From Clostridia bacterium (GTDB lineage: Bacteria > Bacillota > Clostridia > UBA1212 > UBA1255): a stretch of DNA of 64,000 nt. The translations under genes and the position numbers were made by a program. The notes below the pieces were generated by a model, which was given only the letters and a program-made list of their open reading frames with translations, was not told where the DNA came from and did not search any database. This document shows positions 1,265 to 64,000 of the stretch, piece after piece. The stretch covers positions 1,584 to 65,583 of the forward strand of contig JAFWQX010000066.1 of NCBI GenBank assembly GCA_017508875.1. Reading direction: 5' to 3'. How positions within the stretch are numbered: the first letter of the stretch is position 1; each line of letters starts with the position of its first letter.

Positions 1265-1397
1265 AATGTTTTCTCCTTTCTTTAGTAGTCAAAAGCAGCT
1301 GCTCTGCGAAATACGTTCCGATACTCTAATTCTACAACAATTCGCAAAAAAAGCAACATATTTCCGACTTTTCCGGATATTTCCGGATTTTTCCGAA

Positions 1398-1491
1398 AAC
1401 GGAACGGGGGACAGAGACCCGTTTCACTCAGCCGGGCTCAGGTAAACCGGCAGTAGAATCGTGCGAAACGGGTCTCTGTCCCCCGTTCCGC
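1398..1491. repeat. Long perfect inverted repeat (28-bp arms, ~36-bp loop) between divergent genes
   Basis: aaacggaacgggggacagagacccgtttcac ... gtgcgaaacgggtctctgtcccccgttccg; arms are exact reverse complements. Confidence 0.6.
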
Positions 1492-1515
1492 CTCGTTCCG
1501 CCTCGTTCCGCCTCG
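1481..1515. repeat. 3 tandem copies of decamer TTCCGCCTCG (CTCGTTCC-type microsatellite) just upstream of promoter
   Basis: ccccgttccgcctcgttccgcctcgttccgcctcg read directly. Confidence 0.6.
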
Positions 1516-10237: not shown

Positions 10238-10834
10238 ATGGACAGATTTGCGGAGCAGCTGAACTTCCTGAAAGAGATCGACCGTATGAAAACGGTATAC
10301 AGGCGGAACGTCGTCATTGATAAGTCGCGTCAGGAGGACGATGCTTCGCATTCCTGGCATATGGCGATGTTCGCGTGCGTGCTGAAAGAATATGCCCCGG
10401 AAGGCACGGATCTATTGACCGTCATAAAAATGTGCCTTGTACACGATCTGGTGGAGGTATACGCCGGCGACACGTTCTGCTACGATGCGGAAGGTAATAA
10501 GGACAAGGCGGAGCGCGAGAGGATTGCCGCGGACAAGCTTTTTGCGCTGCTTCCGGGCGATGACGGGAAAGAATTCAGGGCGCTGTGGGAGGAATTTGAC
10601 GATCCGTCAACGAAAGAGGGCTGGTTTGCTGCGGCGCTCGACCGCCTGCAGCCTTTTTTGCTTAACTACCACACCGGCGGGCACACGTGGCACCTTGCGA
10701 AGGTGACGCGGGAGGACCTGCTGAACCGCCTCGCGCCGATCAAAAACGGGATGCCTGATAAATGGGACAAGGTCGTGGAAATGGTTGACGATGCTATCGC
10801 GAGGGGCATGGTGCCGTGGGCGAGGGAGTTATGA
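10238..10834 (+). CDS. HD-domain 5'-deoxynucleotidase (YfbR-like)
   Basis: HSWHMAMFACVL...VHDLVEVYAGD (H...HD...D metal-binding pattern of HD superfamily), ~200 aa. Confidence 0.8.
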   Translation: MDRFAEQLNFLKEIDRMKTVYRRNVVIDKSRQEDDASHSWHMAMFACVLKEYAPEGTDLLTVIKMCLVHDLVEVYAGDTFCYDAEGNKDKAERERIAADKLFALLPGDDGKEFRALWEEFDDPSTKEGWFAAALDRLQPFLLNYHTGGHTWHLAKVTREDLLNRLAPIKNGMPDKWDKVVEMVDDAIARGMVPWAREL

Positions 10835-11070
10835 GTTCAGAATTCAGAGTTAAGAGTTAAGAGGCGAACCGAGTGATGGCACGAATTTTGGGTCTCATGC
10901 GATCCCTTCATTAATTCGCATTTCGGTCAAACAAAATTCTTAGCCATTCACTCGGCTTCGCAGAAGTTCAAATGAAGTTTAGGAAGTTAAGAGTTATGAG
11001 TTCAGAGTTATGAGTTAAGAGTTAAGAGTTATGAGTTCAGAGTTAAGAGTCATTCACTCGGCTTCGCTGG
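10826..11070. repeat. MITE-like intergenic repeat element (copy A): ~105-bp core with terminal inverted repeats, flanked on both sides by GAGTTMA heptamer microsatellites
   Basis: Core gaggcgaaccgagtgatggc...gccattcactcggcttcgc nearly identical to 44727-44830; heptamers gagttca/gagttaa/gagttat x4 and x9. Confidence 0.65.
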
Positions 11071-11124
11071 CGAAAAATAAGGAAGTCAAAGAAACCTTAA
11101 ATCAATGGAAGATGGAGATTGGAT

Positions 11125-11868
11125 ATGAATAATTACAGGAAGCTTTCAGTTGTTTTATGTGCGATTTTAGCATTTGTGCTTGCAGCGGGAATGCTTGCGG
11201 GCTGCAGTGTTGGTGAAAAAGCTGATCAGGGCGGCGTTGTGACTGAGGCTCCGGTGACGGAGGCTGCAACTGATATTCCGACGGCTGCACCGACTGAAAA
11301 ACCGACACCTACGCCTGATCCGACACCCACGCCTGAGCCTACTGAGAAGCCGGATTATTCAGGCGGGATCGTAAAAGAAGCCCCCGTGAGCTACTCGTTC
11401 TTCGGCAGAAAGAATCAGGACGCGCTTTGCGGGACCGGGCGCAGGATTGCCGTGCAATTTTATGCCACGACCGAGTTTGTCGAGCTGGGATTCCATTCTC
11501 CGACCTGGACTGCCAAGAGCGGATACACAGTTGATTATGAATTGTACGCGTGGGATAAGGACTACGAAACAACAGTTTTTGACCGAGAACCGGTTCTGAC
11601 GGGCCATTTTGAAAACTGGCAGGACGGCGTGTTCGTAGGTCTGAAAACAGAAGGATTGCCCGCGGGAGAATACGTGCTGCTTGCTCTTTACGGCTCTAAT
11701 GAAGAGATGCATAACAGCGGCGTATGGTACGACACAGACGTAGAAAGAGAAGACCAGATCTCATACGTTGACGACGAAATCTGGTTCGATCACGCCGTCT
11801 GGTTCGAGATCAAATACGCCAAAACGCCCAAAAATCTTTACGGACCGCTTTCGGATCCGGGCTTCTGA
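11125..11868 (+). CDS. Lipoprotein with Pro/Thr-rich linker and uncharacterized C-terminal domain
   Basis: Signal peptide with lipobox LAGC; PTEKPTPTPDPTPTPEPTEKP linker; RBS GGAG 7 nt upstream of ATG. Confidence 0.6.
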   Translation: MNNYRKLSVVLCAILAFVLAAGMLAGCSVGEKADQGGVVTEAPVTEAATDIPTAAPTEKPTPTPDPTPTPEPTEKPDYSGGIVKEAPVSYSFFGRKNQDALCGTGRRIAVQFYATTEFVELGFHSPTWTAKSGYTVDYELYAWDKDYETTVFDREPVLTGHFENWQDGVFVGLKTEGLPAGEYVLLALYGSNEEMHNSGVWYDTDVEREDQISYVDDEIWFDHAVWFEIKYAKTPKNLYGPLSDPGF

Positions 11869-11891: not shown

Positions 11892-14507
11892 TTGTTGAAC
11901 GTGATCAGGCATAACGCGTGCCGGAATAAAAGCGCAAACTCAAATTTGTTAAAGAATATTTGCAGAATTATTTGCATGATCCTGTGTGCGTTTCTATGCT
12001 CCGGGCTCGTGCTGTTCGGGGGGACAATATCTATGGCAGCTTCTTATGAGACCGCTCTTTATGACAGCAGCGTTCCGTCCGATTCGTATCAGCAGCTTAA
12101 GCTGACGGACAATGACGTTGCGGTACAGTTCGGCGTTACCGGTCCTGTTAAATCAATCAGCATATTTATTGCAAAGGCTACGGCGGTAACGAGAGGTTCC
12201 GTTAAGGTGAGGCTTTTTCCGTGGGGCGGCAGCTACGGCGGAACGCTGAAAGGCACGCCTGTATTCGAAACTGAATTCACGGAATTGCGCAGCGGCATCA
12301 CTTTGGATGTTGAGCTGCCGTCAGGCGCGGCTGCGGGCGAGTATCTGCTCTTTATGACAGGTGTTAAGGGCAATACTCATATAGGTGTTACGGGCATGCC
12401 GGACGCCTGCAAAGAAAAAGTAAGACTGTACTACAACGGGTCGCAGGTCGTTGACCGCAGCGCCGCCGTCGGTATCACGTTCGAAGGGGAAACCGGAGAA
12501 CTTGCCGCCATTTCGGAAAATACGCCTAAATTTGTCACATCCTCCTCTACGTGGGTCGTGACGGACGGATTGGGCAGAAAAGTTGAAAACAGCTACACCG
12601 ATACGCGGCGCGAGAATAAGACTGTAGGTCTGTTTTTCCATACCTGGCATACGAGCAACGGCGCAACGGGTACGCGTAATATCACGCACATCCTGAAAGA
12701 GCACCCGGAGATACAGAACGATTACAGCAGCCCTCTATGGGGGAATGCCGGGGCTTATTTCTGGAACGAGCCGATCTGGGGCTACTACCGTTCGAACGAC
12801 GAATGGGTGCTGAGGAAGCAGGCGGAACTGCTTGCCGACGCGGGCGTGGACGCCGTGTTCTTTGACAATACGAACGGTACGGCGACGTTTATTGACGACG
12901 CGCTTACTCTTTGCAAGGTGTGGTCGAAAGCCCGCGCAGACGGCGTTAAGACACCGCAGATCTCATTTATGCTGCCCATGTTCAATTATGACGACGTGGC
13001 GGTCCAGTTAAGGGAGATCTACACGAAATTGTACGGAGCGGGGCTTTATCAGGATCTGTGGTTCTACTGGAAAGGAAAGCCGCTGATCGTGGGTTATCCC
13101 GGCAGATTGAACGTTGTGAAAAATCCGCTGGACAAGGAAATATCTGAATTCTTCAATTTCCGCGTGATCAATCACGCTCAGTCGCAGGATCATATCCAGG
13201 TCCAGGCAGAAGACGGTACGCCGGTGGTAATGGGTGCGATACAGTCGGAGGTAACGGACAGCTACCAGCTCTGGAACTGGATATCCACATACCCGCAGCT
13301 TATTAACCGCAACCCTGACGGCAGCCCCGAGCAGGTGGCTGTGGCGATCGCGCATAACTGGTGCGCGGAAACGCATCTGACCGCCATGAACAACCCGAAA
13401 TTCCAGGTGTTCGGAAGACATTACGACCCGGTAAAAGGCAAAGTTGACAGCCGCGAAAACGCGAAGCTGTACGGCGCCTATTTCAGCGCACAATGGGAGT
13501 ACGCACTGAATATTGACCCCGAATTTATCTGGGTCACCGGCTGGAACGAATGGGTCGCGGGGCGGTTCAAGGACTTCTGGGGCGTTGAGAACGCTTTCCC
13601 GGACAATTTCAGCGACGAATACAGCCGCGATATCGAGCCCTCAAGGGGAGATCTGAAGGACCATTACTATTATCTGCTCGTGGATTTCATACGCAGATAT
13701 AAAGGTGTTGAACCCGCTAAAGTGTCGGACGTACCGGTGTCGATCGATATCAATACCGGCGCGGGCTGGGAGAGCGTTGAAAATGTGTACGAGACGTACG
13801 CGGGCGATACTGAAGACCGGAATACAAAAGGGTACGTTAACTTCGATACGGGCAAACAGTTCGAATACGTTAACACCACCGGCCGCAACGATATTGTCCT
13901 CGCGAAAGCCGCATATGACAGCGACAACGTGTATTTTATGGCGGAAACGGCGAAAGACCTTACCCCTTATACCGATCCTTCGTGGATGAGGCTGCTGCTG
14001 GAAGTAGAAGAAACCGGAGGCAGAAAATTGTCCGACGGTACCCCGAACTGGGAGAGCTTTCAGTATATTATCGGGCGCGAGGCAGGCACGGACGGATCCG
14101 TCAGGACTATCGAGCGTTCGACCGGAGGCTGGAACTGGGAGAAGATCGGGGACGTCAATTTCAGCGTCAATGCGAATCGCATCCAGATCGCTGTGCCGAG
14201 AACGCTTCTCGGGATCGGCGAAGGAGACAGTTTCGTACTTAATTTCAAGTGGTCGGACAATATGCAGGTCGACGGCGATATACTTGATTTCTACGTGAAC
14301 GGAGACGTTGCCCCTGAAGGCAGATTCAAGTATCAGCTCGCGGCCGGGACCGTGCCGGAGAGGGAAAGCGCTAAGCAGGAGACCAAAAAAGATCCGGTGC
14401 CGTGGATCGTTGCCGGGGCGGCGGTAGTGGCCGCAGGCGCTGCAGTGACCGCGGCTGCCGTCATAGGAAAGAAAAATAAAGAGAAAGAAGGCAAAACGGA
14501 GCAGTAA
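11892..14507 (+). CDS. Secreted putative glycoside-hydrolase-like (TIM-barrel) protein with C-terminal membrane anchor
   Basis: Strong RBS GGGAGGGG before TTG start; signal peptide; region GLFFHTWH...WGYYRSNDEWVLRKQAELLADAGVDAVFFDNTNG resembles glycosidase catalytic modules; C-terminal hydrophobic segment PWIVAGAAVVAAGAAVTAAAVIGKKNKEK; family not assignable by eye. Confidence 0.45.
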   Translation: MLNVIRHNACRNKSANSNLLKNICRIICMILCAFLCSGLVLFGGTISMAASYETALYDSSVPSDSYQQLKLTDNDVAVQFGVTGPVKSISIFIAKATAVTRGSVKVRLFPWGGSYGGTLKGTPVFETEFTELRSGITLDVELPSGAAAGEYLLFMTGVKGNTHIGVTGMPDACKEKVRLYYNGSQVVDRSAAVGITFEGETGELAAISENTPKFVTSSSTWVVTDGLGRKVENSYTDTRRENKTVGLFFHTWHTSNGATGTRNITHILKEHPEIQNDYSSPLWGNAGAYFWNEPIWGYYRSNDEWVLRKQAELLADAGVDAVFFDNTNGTATFIDDALTLCKVWSKARADGVKTPQISFMLPMFNYDDVAVQLREIYTKLYGAGLYQDLWFYWKGKPLIVGYPGRLNVVKNPLDKEISEFFNFRVINHAQSQDHIQVQAEDGTPVVMGAIQSEVTDSYQLWNWISTYPQLINRNPDGSPEQVAVAIAHNWCAETHLTAMNNPKFQVFGRHYDPVKGKVDSRENAKLYGAYFSAQWEYALNIDPEFIWVTGWNEWVAGRFKDFWGVENAFPDNFSDEYSRDIEPSRGDLKDHYYYLLVDFIRRYKGVEPAKVSDVPVSIDINTGAGWESVENVYETYAGDTEDRNTKGYVNFDTGKQFEYVNTTGRNDIVLAKAAYDSDNVYFMAETAKDLTPYTDPSWMRLLLEVEETGGRKLSDGTPNWESFQYIIGREAGTDGSVRTIERSTGGWNWEKIGDVNFSVNANRIQIAVPRTLLGIGEGDSFVLNFKWSDNMQVDGDILDFYVNGDVAPEGRFKYQLAAGTVPERESAKQETKKDPVPWIVAGAAVVAAGAAVTAAAVIGKKNKEKEGKTEQ

Positions 14508-23679: not shown

Positions 23680-23707
23680 AACCCGGGCGGTCTCCTGGTT
23701 TCCTGGA

Positions 23708-23815
23708 GGGTTTTCTTAAGGGCTTTCTTAAGGGCTTTTTTAAGGGGCTTCTCAAGGGCTTTCTCAAGTGGCTTCTCAAGGGCTTTCTCAAGTGGCTTCT
23801 CAAGGGCTTTCTCAA
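23708..23815. repeat. Nine tandem 12-bp repeats (GGGCTTTCTCAA / GTGGCTTCTCAA variants)
   Basis: Read directly; unit resembles the last 12 coding nt of sufB/D (GGTTTCCTGAAG). Confidence 0.8.
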
Positions 23816-23970
23816 GGAAAACTTAACAGTCTTTCAGCGACAGACTCTCCCGCTCTCGCTCCCCAGTCTCTCTTCGGGCTCTCCGCGGGCTCTGCGGGAA
23901 AAATTACTGTTGCATTTTATTTTTTGTTGTAGTATAATATGCTTCGCTGCTTGAAAAGGCGGCTATCTAT

Positions 23971-24046
<76 letters not shown>

Positions 24047-24049
24047 AAA

Positions 24050-24085
24050 AAGCAAGGCATCCGTCAGGGTGCCTTGTTTTTTTGG
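24050..24085 (+). terminator. Rho-independent terminator after tRNA-fMet
   Basis: gcaaggcatccgtcagggtgccttg + TTTTTTTGG. Confidence 0.7.
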
Positions 24086-24113
24086 TGGGGAAGAAAAGTC
24101 TGGCAGGGAAGGT

Positions 24114-24236
24114 CCGGGTTATGAGCACGACGAGCGGGCACCGCAAAGGGCGCGAAGCGATAACCCGGAGGTCGTTGGTTCAAATCCTTCCCCCGCAGCC
24201 ATACCACTTTAGCACTTTAATGTGGTAAATTTTCAC
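24114..24236. repeat. Degenerate tRNA-fMet remnant: inverted copy of anticodon arm (24114-24135) followed by direct copy of tRNA 3' half (24160-24197) and conserved tail; att-like scar
   Basis: ataacccggaggtcgttggttcaaatccttcccccgca duplicated exactly from 24003-24044; tail cataccactttagcactttaatgtggtaaattttcac recurs at 26425, 27875(partial), 30851. Confidence 0.65.
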
Positions 24237-24337
24237 TTTAGTGCTTGTGTTTTTTCTTTTTTAATCAAAAAGGTATTGACATCCTATATTTCATTTAATA
24301 TAATGGTTTCACCGATTCGGTGAAAGGATGGATTTCA

Positions 24338-25402
24338 ATGAAACAAGGCTTGACTGATTTGCAGTACGAACAACTTGCCAAAGAAGCTTTTACAAAGCTA
24401 ATGAGCAGTATCCCTTTCGTATCAGATATTGAAATAATAAAAACTGGGTTGCAACGCGGGTTTGGTGACTTTCGCGCTGTCGTTCACTTTACGGATTCAA
24501 AAGCAGTTCAGGATTTTTACGTAGAGGTTAAATCCAACGGTGAGAAGCGGTACGCTAATATCTTTTGCATGGAAGCAAAACAGCACATCGATGATTTATG
24601 CTACTTGTTTATGGCACCTTATGTATCGGAATCAACATCTGAATATCTGCGTGAAAACAATCTGAGTTTTTTGGATTTAAGTGGTAATTGTTTTATTTTG
24701 ACAAGACGAATGATAATTCATGTTAGCGGAAAACCGAATCAGTTCATTGAGAAACGAGAAAAGAAGAACTATTTATCAAAGTCGTCTTCGGCAGCTTCTG
24801 CGGTTATCAGAACGATGCTGAATGATCCGGATAAATGGTGGAAAGTCAAAGAATTGTCTGAGGTTTCGAAGAAAGCTATCGGAACTGTTTCGAACGTAAA
24901 AGTTTTTCTGACAGAAAAAGATTGGATTGACGACCATATTTATCAATTCCGTTTAAAAAATTTCAAGGAGCTACTTTATGTATGGAGCAAAGACTATCAT
25001 AAAAAAAAATCAATAACAAAGGAATATTATTCTTTGTTTTCTTTGCCAGAACTTGAGACAGAAATATCAAAATGGAGCAAAACGCATGACCGCAATGCCG
25101 TACTTGGCGGTTTTTCCGCCGCGGCAAGATATGTGCCAACTGTTCGGTATAACAAGATCAACGTTTATGTTGCAGAAGAAGGATTGTACGAATTTGAAAA
25201 AGATCTTGCTTTGACGCCGGTTAGTTCGGGAGGAAATATTGTTGTGACGATCCCTCATGACGATACTCCATGTATGTTCAATCAGGAAATCAATGATTCT
25301 ATAGTTTCATCACCGGCACAAACCGTTATTGATTTACTTGGAATGCCAAACCGCGGAGAAGAGGCCGCCGAAGCGATCATATCTAAATACTATAGGAGGT
25401 AG
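24338..25402 (+). CDS. Hypothetical protein, possible AbiEi-like partner of downstream nucleotidyltransferase
   Basis: Low-GC gene directly upstream (5-bp gap) of AbiEii-like gene; no recognizable motif; assignment by gene context only. Confidence 0.35.
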   Translation: MKQGLTDLQYEQLAKEAFTKLMSSIPFVSDIEIIKTGLQRGFGDFRAVVHFTDSKAVQDFYVEVKSNGEKRYANIFCMEAKQHIDDLCYLFMAPYVSESTSEYLRENNLSFLDLSGNCFILTRRMIIHVSGKPNQFIEKREKKNYLSKSSSAASAVIRTMLNDPDKWWKVKELSEVSKKAIGTVSNVKVFLTEKDWIDDHIYQFRLKNFKELLYVWSKDYHKKKSITKEYYSLFSLPELETEISKWSKTHDRNAVLGGFSAAARYVPTVRYNKINVYVAEEGLYEFEKDLALTPVSSGGNIVVTIPHDDTPCMFNQEINDSIVSSPAQTVIDLLGMPNRGEEAAEAIISKYYRR

Positions 25403-26339: not shown

Positions 26340-26470
26340 GCAGATAAGCGGATGAAAATGCGCGCAGGGGCCGTAAATACTTGATTTTATTGTGGTATGG
26401 TCAAATCCGTTATCTCCACTCGGACCATACCGCTTTAGTGCTTTAAAGTGATGAATTTTCAGTTGGGATA
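26340..26470. repeat. Island cassette-boundary repeat, copy 1 (mini-ORF MRAGAVNT 26358-26384 + hairpin 26394-26431 + conserved tail)
   Basis: Aligns with copies at 27790-27900 and 30768-30895 and with tRNA-fMet 3' end/flank. Confidence 0.65.
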
Positions 26471-27494: not shown

Positions 27495-27789
27495 GAAGGC
27501 AATGTTTAGTCAAAAACAAAAAAGTTAAACCCAAAAACAATCAATTCTATATATTAGTAACAATTTGAAAGCAAGCAGGAAAAACAGCAACATTAGTGTT
27601 ATCAAACTTTTATGTAATGATGCAAATTATATTTTGAGGGAAAGAGCAAAAGGCCTTAGGAAACTTTAAGCGATAACGTAAATCTAAAAGAATGGCAGCC
27701 CTATGATTGAGAGCTGTCATTCTTTATTCTATCTTAGTATACTGTTTTCAAAACGTTTGGCATGGTGGTTCCTCTTATGTTTTTGTTAA

Positions 27790-27900
27790 TGATCCATGGA
27801 GGAAAAATGCGCGCAGGTGCCGTAAACACTTAGTTTTATTTGTGGTTTGGTCAAATCCGTTATCTCCACTCAGACCAAATCTTTGTAGCCACAAATCCAG
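27790..27900. repeat. Island cassette-boundary repeat, copy 2 (mini-ORF 27807-27833, hairpin 27844-27881)
   Basis: Same element; hairpin stem carries compensatory changes relative to copy 1 (tat/ata -> ttt/aaa). Confidence 0.65.
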
Positions 27901-30694: not shown

Positions 30695-30767
30695 ATGCGG
30701 CTTTTGTCAAATTGCGGAAGTGTTTCAGTGCCGCTTTTCGACAAAAGCCGTTGTTTTTATTGTCTTA

Positions 30768-30895
30768 TGATCCTCGGAGGAAAAATGCGTGCAGGTGCCG
30801 TAAACACTTGATTTTGTTGGGATTTGGTCAAATCCGTTATCTCCACTCAGACCATACTACCTTAGCGCTGTAAAGTGATGAATTTTTACTTTCGG
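30768..30895. repeat. Island cassette-boundary repeat, copy 3 (mini-ORF 30785-30811, weaker hairpin, conserved tail)
   Basis: Alignment with copies 1 and 2. Confidence 0.6.
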
Positions 30896-36121: not shown

Positions 36122-36233
36122 CGGATCCACACTCCTGTACCGGTAAAAGTTTCAAAAACTGAAACTATACCCGCTGATCTTCGGAAAGTATATAATAAAA
36201 AAAGATAAAATGCAAACAAAAACTCTTTTTCCG

Positions 36234-36690
36234 CCGGGCGGCGGATAACTTTGGCACACAAAGTGGTAAAATCGGGTTTTGTGTGCCAGGCGGGCGCTGT
36301 CTCTTAGCCGGGCAGCAGCTAACTTTGGCACACAAAGTGGTAAAATCGGGTTTTGTGTGCCAGCAGGGCGCTGTCTCTCAGCCGGGCAGCAGCTAACTTT
36401 GGCACACAAAGTGGAAAAATCGAGATTTGTGTGCCAGCCCGGCTCTATCTTGAGAACATCAGAAGGCGAAAAATGAACAATTCGTGGCACACAAATCGCC
36501 GAAATTGAGGATCGTGTGCCACTCCTCCTAAATCTCCGGGAAAAAATGAGAAATTCGTGGCACACAAATCGCCGAAATCGAGGATCGTGTGCCACTCCTC
36601 CTAAATCTCCGGGGGAAAATGAGAAATTCGTGGCACACAAATCGACGAAATCGAGGATCGTGTGCCACTTCTCCTCAACCTCAGCAGGAA
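36234..36690. repeat. Array of six ~65-73-bp tandem units, each containing a long palindrome (type A x3: TGGCACACAAA-N15-TTTGTGTGCCA; type B x3: GTGGCACAC-N21-GTGTGCCAC)
   Basis: Palindromes at 36252-36288, 36326-36362, 36399-36436, 36485-36521, 36558-36594, 36630-36666; spacers between them nearly identical. Confidence 0.8.
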
Positions 36691-36761
36691 AATGAACAAT
36701 CCGTAGCGCGAGAAGATGTCAATACAATCATATGCAAATTAAGGCATAGATATACTCGCTG

Positions 36762-36813
36762 CTTGTTGCTCGTTCCTCGTTCCTCGTTCATCGTTACTCG
36801 TTGCTCGTCGTTC
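36762..36813. repeat. Heptamer microsatellite TTNCTCG x7 (CTCGTTCC-type) immediately upstream of promoter
   Basis: ttgctcg ttcctcg ttcctcg ttcatcg ttactcg ttgctcg tcgttcc. Confidence 0.6.
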
Positions 36814-43636: not shown

Positions 43637-44710
43637 ATGAGCAAAAAAAGGATTATATGTACGATTATTATTGCCGCCGTACTCACTGCCGCTGCGTGCC
43701 TGACGGCCTGCAGTACTTCGGCGCCCGAGCCGCAGAAAACGGATAAACCCGCTGCGACCGCGACAGAAATTATTGGCAACGCGACGAAGGCGCCCGATTC
43801 CGAAGCGACTGAGTTGATCACGACTGCTCCGACTGACGAACCTGTAATAACCCCCACGGACGCTCCGACTCCGGCTCCTACCGAAGCACCGCTTCCCGAA
43901 CCCGGAACGATGGTCTATTACGAGGACTTTTCTTCATACGGAAACGTCAGCAAAAACGATGAAGTAGCTAAAACGCTCGGCTGGAAGCTCCTGACCGTAG
44001 AAGCTGACGGAGCACCGAGCGATCTTACAGCGACGCTTGCGATCAAAGACGGAAAGCTTGAAGTGACGAACTTTAACGCTGACGGGGACAGCGACGGAAA
44101 AGACGGATATCTTATGATGCTTGACGACGCGTATATGGACAAGGTGCTTCGCGCGGGTGAATATACCGTCGAGTATGACGTTACGTACAACGACGCGGCT
44201 AATTACAAGCGCTACGTCAACGTTGTTACTGAATATAACAGCGAAGGGTTTAATTCGTTCCATTTCAGAATAGGCGGTTACGGCAACAATCAGCTTTATT
44301 ATCAGGGAACGTGGTTCAAATACGAGGAAAACACCGAGAGAAACTTATATGCCGCAAGGAAGGGTAACAACGAGATCGGGCAGACTATCGCGTTTAAGCT
44401 TCGCGGAATAGAGGGGAAAATAGAGGATAACAACGCTATTCCCAACTTTAAAGGTGTTCCGGTCACGATACGCGTCGTACGGTCGAACGGGTATGCGTCG
44501 GTTTATATGAAGACCGCGGAAATGAATGATTTTATTCAGGTGAGTGAAACTACCGAAACTTCCGAAGCGTTTAATACGGGCAAGTTGCTGAAGGGCAAGG
44601 CGGTCTGTTTTAAGGTCGGCGGAAAGATCAATGCTTCGGTGGATCGCATTGCTATCTGGACGGGCAGCGGAGAAATGCCTGCGGATCATACGGTGACGTA
44701 TGTGCCTTAA
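43637..44710 (+). CDS. Lipoprotein with Pro/Thr/Ala-rich linker, uncharacterized domain
   Basis: Signal peptide + lipobox LTACS; TDEPVITPTDAPTPAPTEAPLPEP linker; RBS GGAAGGG. Confidence 0.6.
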   Translation: MSKKRIICTIIIAAVLTAAACLTACSTSAPEPQKTDKPAATATEIIGNATKAPDSEATELITTAPTDEPVITPTDAPTPAPTEAPLPEPGTMVYYEDFSSYGNVSKNDEVAKTLGWKLLTVEADGAPSDLTATLAIKDGKLEVTNFNADGDSDGKDGYLMMLDDAYMDKVLRAGEYTVEYDVTYNDAANYKRYVNVVTEYNSEGFNSFHFRIGGYGNNQLYYQGTWFKYEENTERNLYAARKGNNEIGQTIAFKLRGIEGKIEDNNAIPNFKGVPVTIRVVRSNGYASVYMKTAEMNDFIQVSETTETSEAFNTGKLLKGKAVCFKVGGKINASVDRIAIWTGSGEMPADHTVTYVP

Positions 44711-44897
44711 GAGTTAAGAGTTCAGAGGCGAACCGAGTGATGGCACGAATTTTGGGTCTCATGCGTTCCCTTCATTAATTCGCATTTCGGTCAAACAAAA
44801 TTCTTAGCCATTCACTCGGCTTCGCAGAAGTTTAAGTGGAGTTTAGTGAGTTCAGAGTTAAGAGTTAAGAGTTCAGAGTTCAGAGTTAATAGTTATC
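44708..44897. repeat. MITE-like intergenic repeat element (copy B) with flanking GAGTTMA heptamer microsatellites
   Basis: Core 44727-44830 ~95% identical to 10861-10965. Confidence 0.65.
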
Positions 44898-58796: not shown

Positions 58797-59987
58797 ATGG
58801 AAAAAGACTTTCATTATTACGCTACGTACTGCGCCGCATATATAGCCGGATTTACACACGAAGAGAGCGTCAGGATCGCCTGGAGCGCGGCATTCGTTGA
58901 CAACTGCTCTAAAACTTTCCTTGCCAGAGCGAAGGCCCCTTTGAGCGCGGCGACTACTCAGCTTCAGATGGAGCTGATGGAAATGCGTACCGACGTCATA
59001 GGGCTTCAGGAGATCACCAGGATCTGGACGTCGTTTCATTTCCTGCCCAGGGACCTTTATGCGCCGGTAAAAGGTGCGAAGCGCTACAGAAATAAATACA
59101 GACTGCTCTGCGGGCCCAACGGACCGCTGCTGAAAGATACGATCGAACTTGCCAAAAGCAGCGGAACACTCGAAGCTATAGGCCTGTCGATGCACGTGCT
59201 CGCCGATACCTGGGCGCATATGTATTTCATCGGAACGACTTCGCTCGTGTTCAACACTTCAAATTATCATTTTTATGAGAAGATTGCCGACGGAAACGGC
59301 GGCTTTTATGAAAAGCATATAACCTTCCGCCATAATCCGGGCATCCCTGACGATGCGGTGAATTCGCTCTATACTGCCACGCCATTCTCACTGAGAGAAA
59401 ATGCTGTTTTCAATCTCGGCCACGGACGGCTTACGCACCTGCCTGATTATGCTTACGCGAGATACAGGTACATGCCTTCATGGAAGAATTACGAAGAAGT
59501 GTATAAAGACAATCCTGAAGATTTCTACAAAGCGTTCTGCCAGATGATCTATGCGCTTAAATATCTGCGCGGTGCAACAGACCGCTTCGAAACGGACACT
59601 TATGATTTCGAGGCTGCAAAGCCGTACGAACATGAAATACGTACGTTCTTCGAAAAGAGGCAGATCGAGCTAGCGAAAGAATGGAAGGCACTTTCGCTGA
59701 AATTGTCCGGGAAAGAATTTGCACCGTTTGAAATAGAACCTGCGGCAGTAGAATACATTGACGCCGGGGAAGATCGCGACAATACTGTGCTCGGCAGGTT
59801 CATAAAAGCGGCGCTCGCCCAGAAAAGCATGGTGACTAATAAAGTATTCAAGTCCGGAAATCTGACGTGCGGCTACTCCGTTAATTATGAAGAAAAGGGG
59901 CTAAAGGGCATAAAAGATTATTTCAAGCTGCTCGAACTCCACAATGAAGACAGAATAAACCAGAGGCGGAAGGGGAGAGAACAGTGA
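58797..59987 (+). CDS. Hypothetical protein with His-rich putative metal site (HYYATY...HVLADTWAHMYF)
   Basis: ORF with RBS GGAGGT; no family assignable by eye. Confidence 0.45.
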   Translation: MEKDFHYYATYCAAYIAGFTHEESVRIAWSAAFVDNCSKTFLARAKAPLSAATTQLQMELMEMRTDVIGLQEITRIWTSFHFLPRDLYAPVKGAKRYRNKYRLLCGPNGPLLKDTIELAKSSGTLEAIGLSMHVLADTWAHMYFIGTTSLVFNTSNYHFYEKIADGNGGFYEKHITFRHNPGIPDDAVNSLYTATPFSLRENAVFNLGHGRLTHLPDYAYARYRYMPSWKNYEEVYKDNPEDFYKAFCQMIYALKYLRGATDRFETDTYDFEAAKPYEHEIRTFFEKRQIELAKEWKALSLKLSGKEFAPFEIEPAAVEYIDAGEDRDNTVLGRFIKAALAQKSMVTNKVFKSGNLTCGYSVNYEEKGLKGIKDYFKLLELHNEDRINQRRKGREQ

Positions 59988-60556
59988 CCAAATTCAAACG
60001 CGCCACCATTTTAATGATCTCGGCGGCAATGATATTGACAGCCATCGTTTTTATGGTATCTCCTAAAGAAAGTTATCCCGTAGTAACGCTGATCCTGAGC
60101 TTCATGCTGCTCGCCTACGGCATCCGGCAGATCATTTACTATATTGTTATGGCACGCCATATGGTCGGAGGCAGATTGATCCTTTATATCGGGCTGATAC
60201 TGCTCGATCTGGGACTGTTTACAGCGACGCTTTCAGTCATTCCGCTTCCGTACGTTATGCTTTATCTGCTCGGCGGATACGCTTTTGCGGGGGCAATAGA
60301 TCTGATGCGCGCGAAGGAGGCCAGGCGCCTGCACTCTCCCGAATGGAAATTCATTTTGTTCAAAGGCGTGGTCAATATTCTGATCGCCGTTATCTGCCTC
60401 GTGCTGATCTTCGTAGGGACAACTATTGCCGCGGTGTACATTTATTCTGCAGGCCTGATCTATTCGTCGATTTTGCGTATCGTTACGGCAATGCGCAAAA
60501 CGGCCGTCGTATACATTCCTCAGACTGAAATAGAAAGGATAATGTCGTTAAAATGA
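59984..60556 (+). CDS. Hypothetical membrane protein (4-5 TM; HdeD/DUF308-like topology)
   Basis: Hydrophobicity pattern only. Confidence 0.45.
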   Translation: MTKFKRATILMISAAMILTAIVFMVSPKESYPVVTLILSFMLLAYGIRQIIYYIVMARHMVGGRLILYIGLILLDLGLFTATLSVIPLPYVMLYLLGGYAFAGAIDLMRAKEARRLHSPEWKFILFKGVVNILIAVICLVLIFVGTTIAAVYIYSAGLIYSSILRIVTAMRKTAVVYIPQTEIERIMSLK

Positions 60557-61155
60557 AAAGATCATTCAACAAGACTGTTCCGGCAAAGCTTATAGCAGCC
60601 TTACTTGCAGTTGCCGCCGTGTTTATGCTCGCGTCGTGCGAAAAACTCAACGAACTTGTCGGAGGGTGGGGCGACGAATTCGGAAATCTAATCCAGGAGC
60701 TCGAAAATGAAGAGAACGGTACGTCGCAGCCCGAAGGCACAAACGGAAAGTACGATTTCGTATCCAAAGACGTTGACGGACGAACGGTCCGGCTTTCGGA
60801 TTTTAAGGACGCCTCCGTCGTGATGATCAATTACTGGGAGCCCTGGTGCGGCCCTTGCCTCAGAGAAATGCCCGACCTCGCCCGCCTTTATGAAAATTAT
60901 AAAGACAAAGGCCTCGTGATCGTAGGCGTTTTCAGCGAGACCGGTATGGATAAAGAAGTGCGCGACATCATTGCCGACGACGGTATAACGTATCCTGTCG
61001 TACGCAAACAGGGCGTGCTCAAAAACTTCAACGGACCGTACGTTCCGACGACGCTGTTCGTTGACGCGAACGGAAATCCGCTTTCGGATTCGGAAGTAGT
61101 CGGATCGAAAAGCTACGACGAGTGGGAGAGCATTTTAAAACTGTATCTTGAATGA
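60553..61155 (+). CDS. TlpA/ResA-like thiol-disulfide oxidoreductase lipoprotein
   Basis: Lipobox LASC; thioredoxin active site [13 protein letters not shown]. Confidence 0.75.
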
Positions 61156-61274
61156 ACTTCGAGGCAGGCGGGACTTAGCTATGGAAGGCAAAACGGTCAA
61201 TAAAAAAACGGTTCGCCTGGTTTTATCCGTGCTGGCGCTCGCTTTGGGCGCGGCAATGATCATCTTCGGCGTGC

Positions 61275-62264
61275 TTGGCGGTCAGTTCGTTTCTGTTTTC
61301 CGCAAGGCGGCGACAATATGTCTGGAGTGTGTCGGGATTGGATAAGGCGGGCAGAGCATCGGTTTTTAAAAATTTTATATTCCGCTACCGCCTCGCTTTC
61401 CAGGGCATCGCTGCGCTTCTGCAGAACGCCAATTTCAAAGGCTTTTTCACCGGAAAGCCGTTTTCCGGCGCCGCGAAAGGCGTCTGCGTACCCGGGCTCA
61501 ACTGCTATTCCTGCCCCGGAGCGATAGGCGCGTGTCCGATAGGTTCTCTTCAGAGTTTTATGTCTGCGAGGCGGTTCAAATTTCCGTATTACGTGCTCGG
61601 GCTGCTGATTTTTTTCGGCGTGCTGCTGGGCAGGGCGGTGTGCGGTTTTCTCTGCCCGTTCGGGCTTCTGCAGGATCTGCTATTTAAGATCCCGCTCGGG
61701 AAAATACCGGTATTCGGGAAGCTTAGGCAGAAACTGCATAAAAACCGCGTTGACCGCGTACTGCGCAAATTGAAATACGCCGTACTCGTACTGTGCGTGA
61801 TAGTACTGCCGCTGTTCTTTAAATTGACACCCGTATTCTGCAAATATATCTGCCCCTCCGGAACCGTCTCCGGAATACTCGTCGGTCTGGCCGATTCATC
61901 GGTCGGAGCGCTGTTCGGCAGTATGTTTATGTGGAAAGTGTCCGTGCTGTCAATGATCGTGCTTGCGTGCGTACTGGTAAGCCGCCCGTTCTGCAGATAT
62001 CTCTGCCCGCTGGGCGCGTTTTACGCCCCGTTCAACAAGATCTCGCTCGTTCGATTAAGCGTCGATGCTTCGAAGTGCGTCTCCTGCGGGAAGTGCTCGT
62101 CCGTCTGCGGCATGGGCGTCGATCCGGTCAAATCTCCCGACGACCTCGAATGTATACGCTGCGGTAAGTGCGCGGTCAATTGCCCGGCCGGTGCGATACA
62201 TATCGGTGTAAAAAGCTGCGTAAAAAGCCGCGTAAAAAGCCGGAGCTCAAAATCAAGTATTTAA
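61275..62264 (+). CDS. Membrane-bound polyferredoxin (NapH/CcoG-like, multiple CxxC and 2x[4Fe-4S] motifs); N-terminal boundary uncertain, possible frameshift with ORF 61181-61345
   Basis: [54 protein letters not shown]. Confidence 0.55.
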
Positions 62265-62361
62265 AATTGAAAATCACCGCTGAAGAATGTATAATATAAC
62301 AGCCCGAAAGGGCGGTTAATTATTATACGCAAAAGCGTCCGGTAAACGGAGGAACACTAAC

Positions 62362-64000
62362 ATGGCAGAAAATAAAGAAAACGAAAGAAAAACATATTAT
62401 ATTACGACCCCGATATATTACCCGAGCGGAAATATGCACATCGGACACTCATATACGACCGTCGCCGCAGACGCCGAGGCGAGGTACAGGCGCCTTAAAG
62501 GCTACGACGTGATGTTCCTCACCGGCACCGACGAACACGGCCAGAAGATACAGAGAAAAGCCGCGGAAAAAGGCGTTACGCCTAAAGAATACGTTGACGA
62601 GATCGTCGCGAATACGAAAGAACTCTGGAAGCTTATGAACGTTTCTAACGATCAGTTCATTCGCACCACGGACGATTTCCACGTAAAAGCCGTGCAGAAG
62701 ATATTCAAGAAGCTGTACGACCAGGGGGATATATACAAGAGCGAATACGAGGGCTGGTACTGTACGCCTTGCGAATCGTTCTGGACCGAAACGCAGCTCG
62801 TTGACGGGAAATGCCCGGACTGCGGACGGCCGGTCGAGAGGACGCGCGAAGAGAGCTACTTCTTCAGGCTTTCTAAATATCAGCAGCGGCTCATCGATTT
62901 CATCGAAAGCCATCCCGATTTTATTCAGCCCGTTTCAAGAAAGAACGAGATGCTGAATAATTTCCTGCGTCCCGGACTCGAAGATCTGTGCGTTTCGAGA
63001 ACTTCGTTCGACTGGGGGATCCCGGTGACGTTCGACGAGAAGCACGTAGTTTACGTATGGGTCGACGCACTTTCAAACTACATAACCGCACTGGGATACG
63101 GCAGCGACGACGACAGCAGATTTAAAAAATACTGGCCCGCACAGGTCCATCTGGTCGGAAAAGAAATTGTCCGCTTCCACACTATCATCTGGCCTGCGCT
63201 GCTGATGGCGCTCGATCTGCCTCTGCCGGAACAGGTGTACGGGCACGGCTGGCTGCTGATCGACGGCGGAAAAATGTCCAAATCCAAGGGCAACGTCGTT
63301 GACCCGCGCATTCTTTGCGCAAAGTACGGCTGCGACGCCATCCGCTATTTCCTGCTGCGCGAAGTCCCGTTCGGATCGGACGGCGTGTTTACGAACGAAG
63401 CGCTGATAGGCAGGATCAACGCGGATCTTGCGAACGACCTCGGAAATCTCGTGTCGCGCACTGTGTCGATGCAGCTCAAATATTTCGGCGGAGTTCAGAG
63501 CGCGGACAAAGTTTTTGCGGATGCTGACAATGAAATCCGCGGCCTTTTCAAAGAGATCTACGATAACGTTCAGGTCCAGATGGACGCGCTTCAGTTCCCG
63601 ACGGCGCTCGTGGAAATATGGCGCGGCGTATCGAGGCTCAATAAATTCATCGATGAGACCGCACCGTGGGTACTCGCCAAAACTGCTGATACCGTGAAAG
63701 CGGATAAGGACAGGCTCGCAGGAGTTATGTATACGCTGCTCGAAGGCATTCGCGCGATCTCCGTACTTATCGAACCTTTTATGCCCGAAACTCCTGCAAA
63801 AATACGCGAACAGCTCGGCATCGCAGAAAGACCGGAGCTTACCGCGTGGGAAACGGCGGCGCAGTGGGGCGTATACCCCGACGGCACCGAAGTGAAAAAA
63901 GGCGAAGCGCTGTTCCCGAGGATAGATCCTCAAAAAGAACTCGAAGAGCTTGAAAAAATAAACGCACTGGCCAAAGAAAAAGCGGGCGGGAGCGATAAGG
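62362..64000 (+). CDS. metG: Methionyl-tRNA synthetase (partial, continues past window end)
   Basis: HIGH motif ([10 protein letters not shown]), zinc knuckle CTPC...CPDCG, KMSKS motif; RBS GGAGGAA. Confidence 0.9.

Follow-up and report, generated by a model that had tools for sequence, protein, structure and literature searches.

An interspersed hairpin repeat family coupled to heptamer arrays in uncultured rumen Clostridia

Introduction

Small hairpin repeats, such as repetitive extragenic palindromes (REPs), bacterial interspersed mosaic elements (BIMEs), and MITEs (miniature inverted-repeat transposable elements), shape operon expression and genome stability and are known mostly from Proteobacteria and a few pathogens. 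Here we describe a small repeat family of the REP/MITE kind in uncultured rumen Clostridia, starting from two copies, A and B, in a 64,000-nucleotide stretch of Clostridia bacterium DNA (GenBank assembly GCA_017508875.1, contig JAFWQX010000066.1, positions 1,584 to 65,583 of the forward strand; hereafter the window, whose own numbering is used). Each copy has a ≈100-nt hairpin core bracketed by tandem heptamers. On balance, the family is probably a mobile, non-autonomous, lineage-restricted mosaic repeat that is moved in trans and resembles BIMEs and REP doublets forming hairpins (REPINs).

Several other described systems share some of these features. Correia/NEMIS elements of Neisseria and RUP elements of Streptococcus pneumoniae have terminal inverted repeats (TIRs) flanked directly by a fixed TA duplication, and their parent insertion sequence (IS) family is known. 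BOX elements of S. pneumoniae carry a variable 45-nt module between boxA and boxC. Integron attC sites have the core sites RYYYAAC and GTTRRRY and belong to a cassette array with an integrase. The short tandemly repeated repetitive sequences (STRRs) of cyanobacteria are built from units such as CCCCAGT, TTGGTCA, and CAACAGT.

In canonical REPs, the foot of the hairpin is preceded on its 5' side by a guide tetranucleotide, GT[AG]G (PMC6006769). Class 2 genes, which resemble those of REP-associated tyrosine transposases (RAYTs), occur mainly in Cyanobacteria, Bacteroidetes, and Proteobacteria (PMC6006769); the host here belongs to a Clostridia lineage. Intergenic arrays of the heptamer TAACTGA occur in Beggiatoaceae, Cyanobacteria, and Bacteroidetes (PMC4679880), and heptamers are, in the summary of Mrazek (2007) given there, the commonest long simple repeats in many genomes, with no settled explanation. 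The family described here ties interspersed hairpin repeats to this unexplained excess of intergenic heptamer arrays, two subjects that are usually treated apart.

Results

Two near-identical cores in the window belong to a dispersed family

The 99-nt cores of copies A and B (Table 1) are separated by one mismatch (A/T at 10903/44767), and with their flanks the copies are 91% identical across a 200-nt repeat. An 18-mer from the arm (GGCGAACCGAGTGATGGC) occurs exactly twice in the window compared to 0.12 occurrences expected by chance, and no core besides these two appeared when a covariance model was run over the entire window with its filters disabled. Tandem Repeats Finder placed heptamer arrays on both sides of each core (10826-10863 and 10985-11050 for copy A; 44707-44727 and 44848-44895 for copy B). 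Both copies sit between co-directional genes on the plus strand, with the upstream stop codon inside or against the first heptamer and the next start codon at 11125 (copy A) or 44902 (copy B). These results bear out the original prediction, made from the letters of the window, that a core with inverted arms is present twice, is bracketed by GAGTTMA heptamers, and directly follows a stop codon in the gap between co-directional genes. Ordinary genes flank the copies, namely YfhO, an HD-domain hydrolase, a lipoprotein-like gene lacking a Pfam match, and a MatE transporter.

An exact two-arm pattern, scanned against one genome per species (185,579 species), matched 20 places, all in the yak-rumen metagenome-assembled genome (MAG) Clostridia bacterium RGIG10101; many of these matches lie where a contig ends. 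With a second pattern, based on the inner stem, 58 metagenome stretches were matched. Together with profile and covariance searches of all retrieved DNA, these scans yielded at least 94 unique cores on 79 contigs; retrieved loci or contigs that were compared with the window are designated below by L numbers. The copy count that the original prediction had proposed as a check thus points to a dispersed family, and a simple local duplication was rejected by the many copies elsewhere. The window organism is a relative of RGIG10101, as locus L016 is ≈90% identical to window positions 59433-62362. No unit contains an open reading frame (ORF), and all copies are intergenic. A phage or plasmid origin was rejected, in that the core pattern matched nothing in viral contigs, plasmids, or phages. 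So far, the sequence collections show the family in no more than a single lineage of uncultured rumen Clostridia. Metagenome assemblies tend to break at the elements, and 39 of the 94 cores lie no more than 150 nt from an end of the retrieved sequence.

The core folds into a bulged hairpin supported by covariation

The core folds into a long hairpin with an outer stem of 17 pairs, in which GCGAACCGAGTGATGGC (10864-10880 in copy A) pairs with GCCATTCACTCGGCTTCGC (10943-10961) and leaves two bulged bases on the 3' arm, followed by an inner stem of 8 pairs and an apical hairpin. Its folding energy is -41.0 kcal/mol as RNA (z -5.85) and -24.3 kcal/mol as DNA (z -5.83), and 0 of 200 shuffled sequences folded as well, which confirms the internal structure anticipated by the original prediction; the reverse strand of the core folds at -39.3 kcal/mol. 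Copy B together with its flanks folds no better than shuffled sequence (z -1.4), and the best fold of this longer segment uses an alternative pairing between heptamers and arm.

Across 37 distinct cores, 96.7% of the cells in the paired columns hold standard pairs. Compensatory changes affect seven pairs, with 28 cells altered on both sides, a result matched by 0 of 500 shuffles, and pairing falls to 26-46% in a control with slid 3' partners. Compensated variants include GAGTGATGGC/GCCATTCACTC compared to GGATGATGAC/GTCATCTATCC and GAATGATAGC/GCTATTCATTC, TTTTG/CAAAA compared to TTTCG/CGAAA, and ATGCGA/TCGCAT compared to CTGCGA/TCGCAG. Variant arms retain both bulges or have one of them displaced by 2 nt. 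Conservation of the inverted repeat, on which the prediction had also made its claim depend, is therefore seen both in the arms themselves and in the compensatory changes. A U-G pair at columns 33/64 is invariant and becomes a C-A mismatch on the other strand. The covariation of an inverted repeat is compatible with either DNA or RNA as the folded species.

The apical hairpin occurs in interchangeable variants, namely ap1 (in the window), ap2, and a compensated form of ap2. At the copy A locus, the window and L030 agree at all 73 core bases outside the apical hairpin, and their flanks are only 78-84% identical. A known RNA family was rejected, as no Rfam family reached the gathering threshold or appeared at permissive thresholds; the best matches to the element were chance-like (E 0.15-10), and the window gave only tRNAs.

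Heptamer arrays and tails define two subfamilies

Alignment of all copies with their flanks showed that a complete unit consists of a left heptamer array, the ≈100-nt core, a short tail, and a right array of the same type and orientation as the left one. In subfamily H1, GAGTTMA arrays accompany tail T1 (AGAAGTTCAAATGAAGTTTAGG), and in subfamily H2, GGCAAGT/GATAAGT/ATGGCAA arrays accompany tail T2 (TGGCGAAAAATAAGGTAGTCAAA...). Left array type and tail type are tightly associated (20/2/2/31; Fisher p = 9e-11), and GAGTTMA arrays come after T1 in 22 of the 26 cases that could be scored. This association implies that the arrays belong to the element and not to the target, and the presence of tails and arrays outside the arms implies that the repeated unit extends beyond the arms. 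Across subfamilies the heptamer sequence varies and only the 7-nt period is constant. In sequence, the heptamers are similar to a heptad in the left arm, GAGTGAT, whose complement TTCACTC lies in the right arm, so that pairing of heptamers with the right arm is possible. HutP/TRAP-like binding to NAG-N4 repeats was considered and set aside as an explanation of the arrays, since only the 7-nt period, and not AG, is constant across heptamer types.

Mosaic forms are frequent. Solo left arms occur 24 times inside arrays, and solo right arms occur 4 times, in each case followed by T2. Tandem units are present in L032 and L044, and in L012 and L046 the left array recurs on the right as its reverse complement, so that the hairpin is extended. 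As a separate observation, hairpin arrays in which the stems (GCGGCCGTA/TACGGCCGC) are constant, the loops (≈15 nt) vary, and the spacers measure ≈20 nt occur at L015:5230-5400, L040:6762-7300, L050, L060, and L080:3802-4100, directly 3' of cores that carry a third tail (CAAAGATCAAAAGG).

Copy B is a plain H1 unit. Copy A combines an H1 unit with the right-hand part of an H2 unit, the two being joined within the right arm, which accounts for the extra partial right arm that the original prediction had listed. That feature is real, yet it is not a stutter: it is the remnant of an H2 unit that is still intact at the copy A locus of L030, from a related lineage. The partial right arm at the same locus of L034 is 4 nt shorter than in the window. 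The T2 tail of copy A is matched in L008, L011, L015, L016, and L021 and contains GGAG (11114-11117), 7 nt upstream of the ATG of the next gene.

Table 1. Coordinates and composition of the two copies in the window
Feature	Position	Strand	Sequence or remark
Copy A left heptamer array	10826..10862	+	GAGTTAT GAGTTCA GAATTCA GAGTTAA GAGTTAA GA
TGA stop of upstream HD-domain gene, within copy A left array	10832-10834	+	
Copy A core, 99-nt bulged hairpin, apical variant ap1	10863..10961	+	inner stem GAATTTTG/CAAAATTC
Copy A tail T1, specific to the GAGTTMA subfamily	10962..10983	+	AGAAGTTCAAATGAAGTTTAGG
Copy A right heptamer array	10984..11050	+	9 units + GAGT
Copy A partial right arm, second-subfamily remnant	11051..11067	+	CATTCACTCGGCTTCGC
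Copy A tail T2, second subfamily	11068..11124	+	TGGCGAAAAATAAGGAAGTCAAAGAAACCTTAAATCAATGGAAGATGGAGATTGGAT; last part formed by degenerate heptamers of the ATGG type
Copy B left heptamer array	44707..44726	+	TTAA GAGTTAA GAGTTCA GA; holds upstream TAA stop (44708-44710)
Copy B core, 99 nt, apical variant ap1	44727..44825	+	
Copy B tail T1, sub-variant	44826..44847	+	AGAAGTTTAAGTGGAGTTTAGT; also in L007, L052, L059, L075
Copy B right heptamer array	44848..44896	+	7 units; ends 5 nt upstream of first ATG of MatE-family gene (44902)

Units are present or absent between relatives and arrays change length

The element is missing from relatives that have an HD protein of 73-80% identity; there, the stop codon of the HD gene overlaps the following start or lies 1 nt from it. 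This empty junction implies that the copy A site was entered de novo, without an earlier array. Copy A splits a gene pair that is tightly coupled in relatives. Conversely, L016 carries an element where the window (62189-62265) has none. The unit in L025 and L066 has the left arm, directly repeated, at its boundaries, and the related L008 retains only heptamers and one arm. Comparison of related species thus shows units that are present in one and absent from another, and tandem, truncated, and chimeric forms also occur.

Three candidate clean empty sites were rejected. The comparison of L016 with the window is blurred by a 12-nt repeat expansion, L008 retains a solo arm where L025 has the unit and so is not empty, and L032 and L067 are too divergent to be aligned. 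The 12-nt repeat in question (GTAAAAAGCCGC, 2.9 copies at window 62208-62242) lengthens the 3' end of ORF 61275-62264, and the L016 element sits exactly there.

Array lengths were compared between orthologous loci whose flanks are 97-100% identical. For copy A, the left array has 5 units in the window compared to 7 in L034, and the right array has 9 compared to ≈3. At the copy B locus, L059 exceeds the window by two units on the left and falls short of it by two on the right. The apical hairpin is ap1 in the window but ap2 in L059, where the flanks are 99-100% identical. L027 and L046 have 4 and 9 units, respectively, a 35-nt difference. In two contigs ≈99.7% identical to the window here, the heptamer counts are the same as in the window. 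These length changes between near-identical strains, for which the original prediction had suggested a check and which are seen at both window loci, fit slippage.

Elements favor the sense orientation between co-directional genes

After orthologous sites were collapsed, elements between co-directional genes lie in the sense orientation in 17 cases and antisense in 3 (p = 0.003). The remaining 15 of 35 two-sided sites are not co-directional (9 convergent, 6 divergent). Neither window gap contains a promoter or terminator consensus; a role as promoter or intrinsic terminator was rejected for lack of such a site, and both window copies are, for the same reason, probably transcribed through. Copies A and B would then be co-transcribed with their flanking genes, which would place a stable hairpin between two cistrons, and the tail of copy A would supply a GGAG before the downstream start. 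The elements separate translationally coupled genes, and the strain-variable loci that they create could serve as markers.

Discussion

Comparison with described repeat families

The family is most similar to REPs, REPINs, and BIMEs as these are defined in PMC6006769, PMC3116915, and PMC3337134. It is extragenic, non-coding, lineage-specific, and present in tens to hundreds of copies; its core is a ≈100-nt bulged hairpin whose two halves are inverted; it occurs in mosaic clusters, in tandem, and as single halves; it is strand-asymmetric; and it persists for long periods at some loci and is present or absent at others. The exact pattern matched 1 of 185,579 species genomes, and the family is, like REPs and REPINs, a lineage-specific, multi-copy hairpin of conserved structure. 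The family differs from REPs in four respects. There is no GT[AG]G or other constant tetranucleotide 5' of the hairpin foot, where the neighbors are GAGTTMAGA or GGCAAGTG; the halves are not themselves palindromic REPs; subfamily tails and heptamer microsatellites are integral to the unit; and no RAYT gene (in a REPtron, a Y1 transposase gene present in single copy between the repeats) was found in the window or in L001-L080 with an IS200 TnpA query. Palindrome-associated elements derived from IS200/IS605 have two different small subterminal hairpins, one at each end, and lack inverted repeats, whereas the family here has one long hairpin with inverted arms; the hairpin within tail T2 is not conserved between T2 variants.

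Like Correia/NEMIS and RUP elements, the units have inverted arms, are ≈100-150 bp long and intergenic, are likely co-transcribed, and show insertion polymorphism, but the fixed TA duplication and the parent IS of those elements are not seen for this family. Like BOX elements, the units are modular intergenic repeats with a variable number of tandem modules and a strong predicted structure; here, however, 7-nt units lie on both sides of a fixed hairpin. The arrays share with TAACTGA arrays, STRRs, and long simple sequence repeats (LSSRs) their tandem 7-nt units, nearly exclusively intergenic location, frequent position beside start or stop codons, strain differences in 7-nt steps, and several heptamer types per genome. 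The unit sequences differ from those of TAACTGA arrays and STRRs, being GAGTTMA, GGCAAGT/GATAAGT/ATGGCAA, and GAGNAAC. As far as the account of TAACTGA arrays in PMC4679880 goes, it does not mention an attached conserved hairpin core or element subfamilies, and we found no earlier description in the literature of subfamily-specific heptamer arrays coupled to a conserved covarying hairpin. Finally, attC sites are likewise imperfect hairpins of similar length with extrahelical bases that lie right after stop codons between co-directional genes. By contrast, the ends here are GGCGAAC ... GGCTTCGC, and GTTAAGA and GTTCAGA do not fit GTTRRRY; moreover, there is no cassette array or nearby integrase, and the flanking genes are syntenic and abut each other in relatives that lack the element.

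Movement of the family and alternative explanations

The REPIN/BIME-like behavior of the family favors a trans-acting enzyme that would act on the folded strand. The core would be the recognition module for this trans-encoded enzyme, the heptamers would be part of the element and not of the target, and their number would change by slipped-strand mispairing; the arrays may also supply homology for exchange between copies. The mobile reading draws on the number and spread of copies, the covarying hairpin, the tie between array and tail type, the de novo entry at copy A, the unstable arrays, the sense bias, and the constancy of the non-apical core at the copy A locus. It also draws on signs of recombination, namely the fused structure of copy A, the apical difference at the copy B locus, the excess of solo left over solo right arms, and the site bounded by arm repeats. 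As to the enzyme itself, we tentatively name as the likeliest mover a single-strand, hairpin-recognizing enzyme of the HUH/Y1 type, as in REP/RAYT or IS200/IS605 systems, an assignment that is itself doubtful.

Several points weigh against a mobile repeat moved in trans. No transposase, integrase, or Y1 homolog was found in the 627 kb of DNA flanking the copies, and no element was found in which arms surround a gene, apart from one case with a 23S_rRNA_IVP gene. It was not possible to define a target-site duplication or a guide tetranucleotide that is conserved. The share of genes co-oriented with the element is 0.62-0.75 at every rank up to eight genes, with no fall-off with distance, and two elements that share a contig have opposite orientations roughly as often as equal ones; the sense bias can thus be assigned neither to transcription nor to replication, and a replication-strand rule for orientation is unsupported. 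Both collection scans demanded exact core words, so that part of the core uniformity is built in by sampling, and cores met incidentally near a match are more diverse than those matched by the scans. Lastly, all sequences are metagenome assemblies, in which repeats can yield chimeric joins and wrong repeat counts.

Searches for an encoded mover gave no candidate. The IS200 TnpA query detected no homolog in the window or in loci L001-L080, and an IS200/RAYT-like gene in the retrieved DNA was rejected on this search. A recurring family of neighboring proteins was also rejected: the large cluster consists of paralogous, apparently secreted proteins of ≈870 aa that are also found far from elements, and the other clusters are orthologs or spurious ORFs in repeats. 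Paralogous proteins of 650-870 aa, without a Pfam match, apparently secreted or membrane-anchored, and 28-99% identical, are encoded at window 11892-14507 and at 10 loci; members lie between 6 nt and 7 kb from an element, showing no linkage. The 23S rRNA intervening-sequence protein gene noted above (L072:984-1706; 119 aa; PF05635, E = 4e-27) lies between two complete inverted elements, and L075 has the same left flank as L072 and a different right side.

The sense bias bears on a second explanation, in which the unit is mainly a cis element at the RNA level. The hairpin would be an RNase III site or a barrier to 3' exonucleases within operons, the heptamers would be spacers or protein-binding repeats of (G/A)AG plus 4 nt, and the host would keep the hairpin for differential expression of cistrons, with the many copies reflecting co-option. 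The prevalence of the sense orientation (17 compared to 3), the window gaps that, having no promoter or terminator consensus, should be transcribed through, the stable covarying fold with a U-G pair that would be C-A on the other strand, and the GGAG that the tails give before downstream starts all speak for such an element. However, 15 of 35 two-sided sites are convergent or divergent and 3 others are antisense, truncated, chimeric, and tandem forms are common, and close relatives with the same genes differ in presence or absence of the unit. Moreover, only the period and not the sequence of the heptamers is conserved across subfamilies, and copy B with its flanks folds no better than shuffled sequence. 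We regard this explanation as improbable.

An extension of the mobile-repeat reading goes further, and we consider it unlikely in this specific form. The unit would be a REPIN-like replicator of Clostridia, a class in which systems of the RAYT type are not prominent; the hairpin would be the handle for a single-strand DNA enzyme, and the subfamily arrays, with their solo left arms, would be the functional ends that set target choice or register by pairing with the right arm. If this were true, the element would carry and propagate its own microsatellite, and the STRR and TAACTGA arrays of other phyla could be footprints of similar hairpin elements.

The original prediction had called the repeat MITE-like. 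This description stands for a dispersed, structured, non-coding family of short units; it fails in the strict sense, since the arms are not terminal, no duplication of fixed length abuts them, and no parent was seen in the 627 kb of flanks. As a classical MITE, the unit would be a deletion derivative of a DDE IS, the 17-19-bp arms would be its TIRs, and the heptamers would be a 7-bp target duplication expanded by slippage. Besides the inverted arms and the many copies, the direct orientation of heptamers on both sides of the core and the GTTAAG common to the outer borders at L016 and L075:2442 are in its favor. This origin is nevertheless quite unlikely. The association of array type with tail type marks the arrays as a property of the element, conserved tails intervene between the right arm and the right array, and no parent element appeared in the 627 kb of flanks. 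Furthermore, the bases adjoining the left arm (..GA, ..GTG, ..GCA) do not duplicate those adjoining the right arm (AGAAG.., TGGCG..). The outer borders are ambiguous.

Spread without a dedicated enzyme, in which hairpins would provoke replication slippage and template switching that make tandem repeats from arm ends, and copies would then spread by homologous or microhomology recombination through the arrays, draws on an unrelated hairpin with decamer arrays whose unit overlaps an arm end (see below), on other hairpin arrays that adjoin GAGNAAC heptamers, on the likeness of the heptamers to GAGTGAT, on one occupied site bounded by direct arm repeats, and on the swap of apical variants at one locus, but it is very unlikely, because near-identical cores at ≈94 unrelated sites are hard to reach by recombination alone and because the copy A site, where relatives have a gap of 1 nt from stop to start, offered an incoming unit neither an array nor arm homology, so that an illegitimate or enzyme-driven step is required for the first insertion at least.

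Other repeats of the window

An unrelated hairpin at window 1394-1496 has perfect arms of ≈27 bp (GGAACGGGGGACAGAGACCCGTTTC...) and an RNA fold of -73 kcal/mol (z -8.5). It is flanked by decamer repeats of the ATATTTCCGG type on the left (1358-1395) and by three copies of CGTTCCGCCT on the right (1484-1515), where the decamer unit overlaps the arm end; another copy of the arm is present at L028:804-820. This hairpin with its decamers suggests a more general link between hairpins and short tandem repeats in the lineage.

Two tandem arrays of 73-74-nt units, with 3 copies each, occupy window 36233-36808, and each unit contains a hairpin (GGCACACAAA...TTTGTGTGCC). Next comes an array of the heptamer GTTCCTC (36753-36808; GAGNAAC when the minus strand is read), a third heptamer type that thus adjoins another hairpin family.

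At window 23695-24201, nine copies of a 12-nt tandem repeat (AGGGCTTTCTCA) lie just upstream of a tRNA-Met gene (23971-24046). The 3' 42 nt of this tRNA are repeated at 24160-24201 (98% identity), followed by an AbiEi-family gene (24320-25402), and the region may be the edge of an integrated element. A further intergenic repeat family has three copies of ≈85% identity (26340-26464, 27789-27888, and 30767-30891), in each of which a GGTCAAATCCGTTATCTCCACTC motif lies between inverted GGT.TGG/CCA.ACC arms.

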